Shown in pieces: positions 29,576 to 30,053 of a stretch of DNA of 64,000 bases. The stretch is from Roseibium sp. GTDB lineage: Bacteria > Pseudomonadota > Alphaproteobacteria > Rhizobiales > Stappiaceae. The DNA is taken from the NCBI RefSeq assembly GCF_051016195.1, contig NZ_CP134616.1:956110-1020109 (forward strand). The letters run 5' to 3'. A program made the translations under genes and the position numbers. Positions within the stretch are counted from its first letter, which is position 1, and each line of letters opens with the position of its first letter. The notes beneath the pieces are model-generated. The model saw only the letters and a program-made list of their open reading frames with translations, did not search any database and had not been told where the DNA came from.

Positions 29576-29842
29576 TCAGAAGAGGAAATCGTCGGCGCTG
29601 TCCGGTGAAAAGTTGTCATCACCCGTCAATGCGAAATCAAGGACGGCCGCTTCACTGTAGGTGACCTTTATTTCCTCATAATTCAGAGAAATCGTCTCGG
29701 TGGGAATCGGGTCTGCCGACGAATCGGAAGGCTCCTTGCCTTCCCCGAGATCGGACACAAACTGAAAGGTGTCTTCCGCTGCGGAGCTCCTGTTGTCGAC
29801 GTGTTTCATAATCGGAATCATTTTCAGGCGCACTTTGCCCAT
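29576..29842 (-). CDS. Small acidic protein with Hcp-like motifs and a C-terminal DDFLF
   Basis: AAAGGA RBS before ATG 29842; GKVRLKMIPIMKHVDNRSS and PTETISLNYEEIKVTY resemble two Hcp segments; 88 aa. Confidence 0.55.
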   Translation of the reverse strand: MGKVRLKMIPIMKHVDNRSSAAEDTFQFVSDLGEGKEPSDSSADPIPTETISLNYEEIKVTYSEAAVLDFALTGDDNFSPDSADDFLF

Positions 29843-30053
29843 GTCCAAAATCCTTTATCGAAATATGCGTTGTCTCAACGAATGCGAAATTAGCCGGCAG
29901 GCTTTCGATTTGCTGTGACACCGGTCACGCAAATGCTCTTGAGGCCAGGGTGCGTGATGCTCCGCGTGACGCATAAGTCTGCTTCTTGATCGCGAGATGA
30001 TTCCGGTACTGATTTGGCTTGCCAGTTTCATAAGAGATTCCTTATGATTAGGA

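Follow-up and report, generated by a model that had tools for sequence, protein, structure and literature searches.

An 88-residue protein encoded in a Roseibium genome combines two β-strand motifs of Hcp, the tube protein of the T6SS (type VI secretion system), with a DTFxF motif and an acidic-aromatic C-terminus, both otherwise almost exclusive to the RTX proteins of the same genome. It resembles Hcp and RTX proteins while belonging, by family cut-offs and repeat content, to neither group. The gene is real and under purifying selection, and its product (hereafter the mini-protein) probably represents small exported proteins of a new kind, produced together with the secretion weapons of the cell. 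In its specific form, as an unfolded non-RTX passenger of type I secretion (T1SS) that is made from Hcp strands and belongs to a secretion regulon, this reading is given a probability of roughly 0.45; it draws on profile comparison, motif statistics and promoter architecture.

The gene, its surroundings and its conservation

The window, that is, the whole stretch of DNA that was analysed (64 kb), corresponds to C1:956110-1020109 (0.956–1.020 Mb) of a 6.54-Mb single-contig genome. In window coordinates, the gene and its translation signal are as follows:

29576..29842, minus strand: coding sequence of the 88-residue mini-protein, with the stop codon at 29576–29578
29851..29855, minus strand: ribosome-binding site AAGGA, 8 nt 5′ of the ATG, with GAAGGAtTTT kept in 9/9 orthologous loci

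The protein, MGKVRLKMIPIMKHVDNRSSAAEDTFQFVSDLGEGKEPSDSSADPIPTETISLNYEEIKVTYSEAAVLDFALTGDDNFSPDSADDFLF, starts MGKVRLKM, ends ADDFLF, and has a pI of 4.1, a net charge of −11 and no cysteine. An earlier, sequence-only reading of this DNA had described an 88-residue frame with a ribosome-binding site in a window without T6SS genes, and both parts of that description hold. No T6SS gene was found inside the 64 kb, since this genome has its tssA-tssB-tssC-hcp cluster at 5.05 Mb and carries a further hcp at 0.587 Mb.

The gene is convergent with a gene for a GntR/FCD regulator, and on its divergent side come genes for an ArsR-type protein, an AHSA1-domain protein and a NicO-type transporter, in that order. 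The ArsR and AHSA1 pair is retained beside it solely in the closest relative; in other species, the neighbours are AraC/TetR, LysR or response regulator genes. Across six genomes, no operon partner was found and the gene sits alone amid unrelated genes, and in none of the genomes examined do hcp, vgrG, core T6SS or T1SS genes stand beside it. In one lineage, a prePAAR/PAAR effector gene is located 5.4 kb away.

Among 5.8 billion clustered proteins, 13 homologues of 87–101 residues were found, all annotated as hypothetical and originating from Roseibium/Labrenzia or marine assemblies. Nine of 72 Roseibium species genomes carry this family, termed A1, which was detected in none of 60 genomes from nine other genera of Stappiaceae; an HMM search of the mini-protein's own genome revealed no paralogue. 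Four blocks are invariant within the family: D-x-F-x-F (residues 24–28), PT.T..N.EEI.V.Y (residues 47–62), A..DF.LTG (residues 66–74) and a terminal D..F. The ADDFLF terminus, which the sequence-only reading had picked out, is nearly invariant, with one orthologue (L012) devoid of the DDFLF tail and ending in EDFIL instead.

For unsaturated A1 pairs, the Nei–Gojobori dN/dS is 0.09–0.27 (0.44 for one close pair), and the reading frames are intact and of conserved length. The mini-protein frame is thus a real gene under purifying selection, and the same dN/dS values, the intact frames and the conserved ribosome-binding site exclude an eroding pseudogene. With the promoter likewise conserved across nine species, the eroded hcp that had been offered as one interpretation is rejected. 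The alternative offered alongside it, a truncated and repurposed Hcp-derived peptide, is upheld by the partial homology described below, the same-length homologues and the purifying selection. No family in Pfam, NCBIfam, PADLOC or PHROGs covers the mini-protein, the matches there being sub-threshold and Hcp-like, and a literature search returned no report of Hcp-fragment proteins, of the TGTGAC-N4-GTCACA palindrome described below or of T6SS regulation in Roseibium.

Relationship to Hcp

Two segments of the mini-protein resemble Hcp (TssD; PF05638, TIGR03344), and in both proteins they occur in the same order, as a 'GKx..DL...KYVDKxS' strand followed by the last major strand 'PTE.xSLNFEEIKVTY':

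29783..29839, minus strand: residues 2–20, GKVRLKMIPIMKHVDNRSS, an Hcp-type strand resembling 'GKx.xxDLxxxKYVDKxSP', aligned by hhalign with Hcp residues ~49–67
29657..29710, minus strand: residues 45–62, PIPTETISLNYEEIKVTY, the motif of the last major strand of Hcp and the most conserved block of the A1 family

Single-sequence scans place the mini-protein below the family cut-offs, with 14.4 bits against a cut-off of 23.5 for PF05638 (residues 46–62 only) and 12.5 against 58.9 for TIGR03344 (the last strand of Hcp). A sequence search of the PDB with the mini-protein returned one weak Hcp-like chain (E-value of 0.26). At the profile level, hhalign aligned A1 with an Hcp alignment at a probability of 97.4% (P = 1.2e-11), pairing mini-protein residues 2–65 with Hcp residues 49–138 and skipping a helix and three central Hcp strands. 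A profile match to Hcp, a check that the earlier reading had named, is thus obtained with hhalign and not with the single-sequence Pfam and NCBIfam scans, and the remark that the middle of Hcp is replaced agrees with the skipped segment. Hcp comprises ~160 residues, compared with the 88 of the mini-protein, which is without the first two strands, the helix and the three central strands and, unlike Hcp, carries DTFxF and DDFLF and is encoded outside T6SS loci.

Because two of the six Hcp templates had come from the query search, the comparison was repeated with query-independent templates only (the Hcps of the same genome and the domains of P0027). Residues 2–20 again aligned with Hcp residues 49–67 and residues 40–64 with Hcp residues 114–138, in colinear order, and both segments scored beyond every column shuffle. 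For the N-terminal segment, the score of 18–25 (shuffle mean of 8.5) was reached by 0/150 and 0/200 column shuffles; this match is significant in the close A1 subgroup only and has decayed in distant members. The likeness of both the N-terminus and the late strand to Hcp, noted from the letters alone, is thus borne out. A different placement of the N-terminus, on the penultimate Hcp strand (..LKNVLVTSY..), was suggested by intermediates such as P0019 and P0026 and was set aside, with hhalign positioning the segment on Hcp residues 49–67.

The A1 profile was also searched against 1.84 billion representatives. The matches include two full-length, Sec-exported Hcp-like proteins from metagenomes, P0029 and P0032, with a last major strand VPTE.lSLNFEEIKVTY. 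Proteins with several Hcp units in tandem were also among them, as were numerous small mosaic ORFs mixing different Hcp strands. The segment SLNFEEIKVTY of the mini-protein recurs unchanged in P0029 and P0032, and is shared by the mosaic mini-proteins P0023, P0026, P0028 and P0031. The resident T6SS Hcps (VNFGEYKIIY, FSFTYRKCEWTH) resemble the mini-protein far less in this strand than do P0029 and P0032. P0029 and P0032 possess N-terminal signal peptides and are encoded on contigs without T6SS genes; they differ from the mini-protein as full-length barrels. The mosaics combine other Hcp strands, and several of them exceed the Pfam Hcp cut-off, by sequence forming intermediates that link the A1 family to Hcp. 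D[TSE]FxF(VS) and acidic-aromatic ends are likewise found in several of the mosaics, as in the mini-protein. All of these are orphan genes outside T6SS clusters, the contigs of the distant mini-Hcps being too short for context.

The significance of the likeness to Hcp bears on a reading in which it is either convergent, reflecting a common amphipathic β-strand 'word', or the trace of a functionless hcp remnant. Three observations are in keeping with convergence: the single-sequence matches are sub-threshold, the N-terminal strand is not kept in distant A1 members, and large proteins other than Hcp contain the strand motif in tandem copies. Against it stand the two colinear segments, each scoring beyond all shuffles, and the intermediates above the Pfam cut-off; the remnant half of the reading is nearly excluded by the dN/dS of 0.09–0.27 and by the length, ribosome-binding site and promoter conserved across nine species. 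Taken as a whole, this reading is improbable. Shared ancestry of part of the mini-protein with Hcp is statistically supported by the profile alignments. The mini-protein is nevertheless not an Hcp, given its score below the Pfam cut-off, its half length and an AlphaFold prediction without a fold. With the family alignment, AlphaFold2 yielded a pLDDT of 56 and neither secondary structure nor a β-barrel; the disorder of the mini-protein is uncertain because the alignments were shallow (13–14 sequences).

RTX-like motifs and proposed type I secretion

Three further segments of the mini-protein recall motifs of RTX proteins:

29759..29773, minus strand: residues 24–28, DTFQF, with D24, F26 and F28 invariant, the motif that, as GxDTFVF, caps the RTX repeat blocks of this genome
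29615..29647, minus strand: residues 66–76, AVLDFALTGDD, invariant, resembling by eye the xIxDFxxGxD motif of RTX C-terminal domains, a likeness that is not significant by hhalign
29579..29596, minus strand: residues 83–88, ADDFLF-COOH, acidic-aromatic and nearly invariant, a candidate T1SS signal tip

The RTX set of this genome was defined as all frames with three or more GGxGxD repeats, giving 18 frames. Their C-termini include HQDDFNFV, SEDDFVV, TDSFLFA, RDDLFV, PDEFSFL, VSELFA and VDLFG, with GxDTFVF caps and xIxDFxxGxD motifs upstream. The enrichment of the motifs was assessed in a crude selection of 4,379 genes with confident calls (10 RTX, 4,369 other), using patterns drawn from the mini-protein itself:

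DTF.F: 5/10 RTX, 15/4,369 other, P = 3e-10
Acidic-acidic-F/L-hydrophobic terminus: 5/10 RTX, 5/4,369 other, P = 5e-12
'DDF' in the last six residues: 2/10 RTX, 3/4,369 other, P = 5e-5

Of the 57,327 frames that run from stop to stop over 60 residues or more, 4 have both DTF.F and the acidic-aromatic terminus, namely two RTX proteins, the mini-protein and a sister frame of 87 residues. The C-terminus had been called RTX-type from the sequence. In its support, the terminus and DTFxF are enriched in the RTX proteins of this genome; GG.G.D repeats, on the other hand, have 0 matches in the 88 residues of the mini-protein, compared with 3–24 in the RTX proteins, so that the label fits the terminus and the DTFxF motif only. 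A whole-domain hhalign comparison of the mini-protein with RTX C-terminal domains was not significant (P = 0.12), and the case for T1SS consequently rests on two short motifs and not on domain homology. HMMs for T1SS targets gave no significant match to the mini-protein.

The sister frame (genome positions 752559–752819, with a strong ribosome-binding site) was found through the motif only. It opens with the same strand motif, SEQVTLNYEKIEWTY, contains DTFNFNF and a second, degenerate strand copy (EEVIIAHEHIE), and ends in FDDFFA. It represents a second Roseibium-only family, A3, found in 9 of 72 genomes, with A1 accompanying it in 7 of these; by hhalign, the two families have only the strand in common. 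A3 is likewise predicted to be disordered (AlphaFold2 pLDDT of 49).

In overall properties, the mini-protein resembles substrates of T1SS with a C-terminal signal, such as HlyA, serralysin-type proteases and NodO, a class whose signal typically has an acidic and hydrophobic extreme terminus. Typical substrates have an acidic pI, no cysteine, an unfolded state and an uncleaved C-terminal signal of ~60 residues (PMC3034196), and the mini-protein is likewise acidic (pI of 4.1), free of cysteine and disordered in the AlphaFold2 prediction. Small non-RTX substrates of T1SS have been documented in a rhizobial alphaproteobacterium (PMC2275737). The mini-protein differs from RTX proteins in being without nonapeptide repeats, in having no adjoining pair of genes for an ABC transporter and an MFP (membrane fusion protein), and in being far smaller than the known C-terminal-signal substrates. 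To our knowledge, 88 residues is unusually small for a substrate of this type. The genome contains six genes for HlyD-type T1SS membrane fusion proteins, none of them within 7 kb of the mini-protein gene.

The same acidity and predicted disorder could be read in another way, as those of a non-secreted protein in which DxFxF and DDFLF bind an intracellular partner and the likeness to Hcp and RTX proteins reflects origin only; examples would be an anti-regulator, an acidic-tail ligand mimic, a degron-bearing protein or a metal-binding buffer. Such a role would suit the strong negative charge and the lack of a genetic link to secretion machinery, and acidic-aromatic motifs recur in two other small acidic ORFs with the same promoter element. 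In several genomes, the gene has flanking regulator genes (ArsR, GntR, AraC, TetR, LysR), but these differ between species. Neither a partner nor a precedent for the motifs was found, and in this genome DTFxF and an acidic-aromatic terminus are otherwise combined in RTX proteins only. An intracellular role of this kind is considered unlikely.

According to the preferred reading, export by T1SS, the mini-protein would be a mosaic of two β-strand motifs from an Hcp-like protein, whose barrel middle has gone, the DTFxF of an RTX cap and the acidic-aromatic DDFLF C-terminus. As a passenger, it would use one of the genome's six type I secretion systems, being kept unfolded in the cytoplasm, recognized through its C-terminal region and exported C-terminus first through an ABC/MFP/TolC channel. 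Outside the cell, the Hcp-type strands might act by β-sheet addition, through self-association or docking on a β-rich partner, and Ca2+ might help by binding to the Asp-rich linkers or by inducing folding. That the nearest full-length relatives of the strand are signal-peptide-bearing orphan Hcp-like proteins is counted in favour of export. The sequence-only reading had proposed a tube cap, a decoy or a secreted β-strand module; among these roles, the last fits best, because the two motifs are otherwise almost exclusive to the RTX/T1SS proteins of the genome. For a cap or decoy, the single link to the T6SS that emerged is the conserved promoter palindrome described below.

The promoter palindrome and a candidate regulon

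Upstream of the mini-protein gene, two elements are conserved:

29913..29930 (core 29915–29928), no strand assigned: palindrome GTGAC-ACCG-GTCAC, invariant in 9/9 orthologous promoters
29887..29892, minus strand: −10-like hexamer TAATTT, 20 nt past GTCACAG, with its centre 32.5 nt from that of the palindrome

In the orientation of the gene, the upstream alignment of the nine orthologues reads cGTGAC-N4-GTCACAG, centred ~79 nt 5′ of the ATG. The same architecture precedes 8/8 A3 genes examined, with a left half-site GTAAY. The palindrome is present in all 17 A1 and A3 promoters, and TAnnnT occurs at the same spot in 8/9 A1 and 7/8 A3 promoters. For CRP, the site is located at −41.5, and for lux/tra boxes the position is about −42.5; class II CRP/FNR promoters and lux/tra-box promoters have a spacing of 32.5 nt. 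The A1 and A3 promoters have this class II activator spacing, with the palindrome at about −41.5 from the predicted transcription start, which in the mini-protein gene would lie ~37 nt 5′ of the ATG. In its 16-bp palindrome and in the distance of 32.5 nt to the centre of TAnnnT, the element thus resembles class II promoters of CRP/FNR (TGTGA-N6-TCACA) and tra-box promoters of LuxR/TraR, and it is predicted to be an operator of the CRP/FNR or LuxR type.

The element is not confined to the two families in Roseibium. It precedes a distant A1 homologue from another assembly, a gene for a BA14K-like secreted protein, a third acidic ORF of 88 residues and a gene, 4.5 kb upstream of the window, whose product has a peptidoglycan-binding domain. 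The genome has 12 exact core sites, one of which falls in the interval separating tssA from tssB-tssC-hcp, 157 nt upstream of tssB. At this position, TGTGAC-N4-RTCAC is kept in 29/30 Roseibium genomes, followed after 20 nt by TAMATA. Four tandem sites occur within 140 nt before the hlyC-rtxA operon, the sole such cluster in the genome. The palindrome was found at none of the six T1SS loci.

A position weight matrix (PWM) of the full promoter width was over-fitted to related sequences, and the core columns were used instead. When this core matrix, trained solely on mini-protein promoters, is applied to 13 million positions, the tssB site comes 54th, and the chance of such a match in the tssA–tssB intergenic region is estimated at ~0.002. 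Regulation common to the mini-protein genes and tssB is likely but not proven, and is tempered by the rank of 54.

The promoter element shared with the tssB-tssC-hcp operon, together with the significant partial homology to Hcp, also suits an Hcp mimic or T6SS accessory in the cytoplasm, with strands that dock on Hcp rings or the growing tube, so that the protein serves as a cap, decoy, assembly modulator or small T6SS cargo. Distribution among genomes fits this as well. Hcp itself is present in 58/72 Roseibium genomes and in 9/9 of those with the mini-protein gene, a co-occurrence that is uninformative, whereas the tssB cluster is present in 9/9 gene-bearing genomes and in 42/72 across the genus (hypergeometric P of ~0.005, phylogeny being ignored); the prePAAR/PAAR gene near the mini-protein gene in one lineage points the same way. 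Other features argue against such a role. The gene never adjoins hcp, vgrG or core T6SS genes, it is absent from most T6SS-positive Roseibium, and the palindrome also precedes non-T6SS genes. The strand is nearer to orphan Hcp-like proteins with signal peptides than to the resident Hcps, and the two RTX-type motifs are left unexplained. A T6SS accessory is accordingly held to be a minority possibility.

For a mini-protein exported by T1SS, the class II-type promoter would require a dimeric activator bound to TGTGAC-N4-GTCACA. The same site would control the A3 family, the tssB-tssC-hcp operon and the hlyC-rtxA toxin operon, and through this common control the mini-protein would be made together with the secretion and antagonism arsenal of the cell. 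A1 and A3 might even be the founders of a class of minimal, repeat-less T1SS passengers built from Hcp strand fragments, co-produced with the T6SS and the RTX toxin under one regulator and acting extracellularly by adding their strands to partners such as released Hcp or Hcp-like proteins, and so forming a direct functional bridge between type I and type VI secretion. This wider proposal is speculative and has the odds well against it.

If the mini-protein is indeed secreted, it would be among the smallest substrates of T1SS with a C-terminal signal and a natural minimal passenger, with alphaproteobacterial T1SS recognition reduced to DTFxF and an acidic-aromatic end without RTX repeats. Pieces of a T6SS tube protein would then have been recycled as free-standing exported peptides. 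Roseibium is a frequent associate of corals, algae and dinoflagellates, and the TGTGAC-N4-GTCACA palindrome provides a testable handle on how its T6SS, RTX toxin and small secreted proteins are co-ordinated. The unannotated mini-Hcp mosaics in metagenomes suggest that the class may extend beyond this genus.

As candidate regulators, the genome encodes four strong Crp/Fnr-type proteins and one LuxR solo, with no LuxI. A strong sigma-70-like promoter, TTGACA-N17-CAATAT, stands upstream of the palindrome at tssB, and for this reason the palindrome could be an operator at that locus.

Palindromes at secretion-related genes

Outside the window, the palindrome found upstream of the genes for the mini-protein (family A1) recurs on the genome's single contig, C1, at type VI secretion (T6SS) genes and at an RTX locus.

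C1:5052855-5052868, perfect palindrome GTGAC-TGCC-GTCAC between tssA and tssB (locus L015), 157 nt upstream of tssB
C1:3450560-3450698, four tandem GTGAT-N4-RTCAC sites within an AT-rich spacer, upstream of the hlyC acyltransferase and RTX genes (locus L067)

The tssB-upstream element is kept as TGTGAC-N4-RTCAC in 29 of 30 Roseibium genomes, with a conserved TTGACA-N17-CAATAT promoter immediately upstream of it and TAMATA 20 nt downstream. The RTX protein encoded beyond the four tandem sites has 1056 residues, 19 repeats and the C-terminus PDEFSFL; no T1SS genes lie adjacent to this locus.

Other positions with the palindrome

The palindrome also occurs at four further positions.

C1:~1412485-1412750, +, third small ORF of 88 residues with a good RBS (locus L068)
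C1:147846-148199, -, BA14K-family small secreted protein
C1:950497-951648, -, 383-residue PG_binding_1-domain protein, 4.5 kb ahead of the window's start
C1:4699583-4699598, palindrome GTGAC-GTAG-GTCAC with TAAGGT at the right spacing

The third small ORF (MTYFDDRGEH...HDFEDDDSNDFELY...), with a net charge of -29, lies at least 64 nt beyond an exact GTGAC-AAAC-GTCAC site, and has neither the Hcp strand nor a Pfam match. The BA14K-family and PG_binding_1 genes carry the palindrome and TAnnnT with the spacing of the mini-protein promoters, and may be members of the same regulon. The fourth element is followed by approximately 400 nt devoid of a convincing ORF and then by a tRNA-Ser-like sequence, and could correspond to a regulated small RNA or leader.

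Sister family and variant loci

A sister acidic ORF founds a second Roseibium-only family (A3), present in 9 of 72 genomes, seven of them in common with the first family, and with the same promoter architecture.

C1:752559-752819 (locus L003:1522-1785), +, sister 87-residue acidic ORF, outside the window

Its sequence follows the pattern MSEQVTLNYEKIEWTY...DTFNFNF...EEVIIAHEHIERPHD...FDDFFA, and contains an H-E-H...H-D cluster resembling a metal site.

The orthologue at locus L012 (genome G080, contig 19) ends in ...LTGNEDFIL, the final ~10 residues, including DDFLF, being absent. It may be a natural truncation of the mini-protein and, if so, would be useful for testing the role of the C-terminal tail. 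At loci L063 and L064 (the Labrenzia sp. lineage of the protein P0013), the mini-protein gene is followed 5.4 kb downstream by a DcrB-like gene and a prePAAR/PAAR effector gene, a neighbourhood present in two independent assemblies.

Hcp last-strand motif as a repeat unit

The last-strand motif of the T6SS tube subunit Hcp, vPtE.xSLNFeeIk, also forms a tandem repeat unit of up to ~20 copies in metagenomic proteins (P0018, P0020, P0023-P0025, P0016 and P0030). Recurring in tandem in varied proteins, it therefore behaves as a portable β-hairpin module. Among these motif-bearing proteins, large ones have FG-GAP/dockerin parts, others have a Frankia_peptide-type leader, and one has an N-terminal DUF5908.
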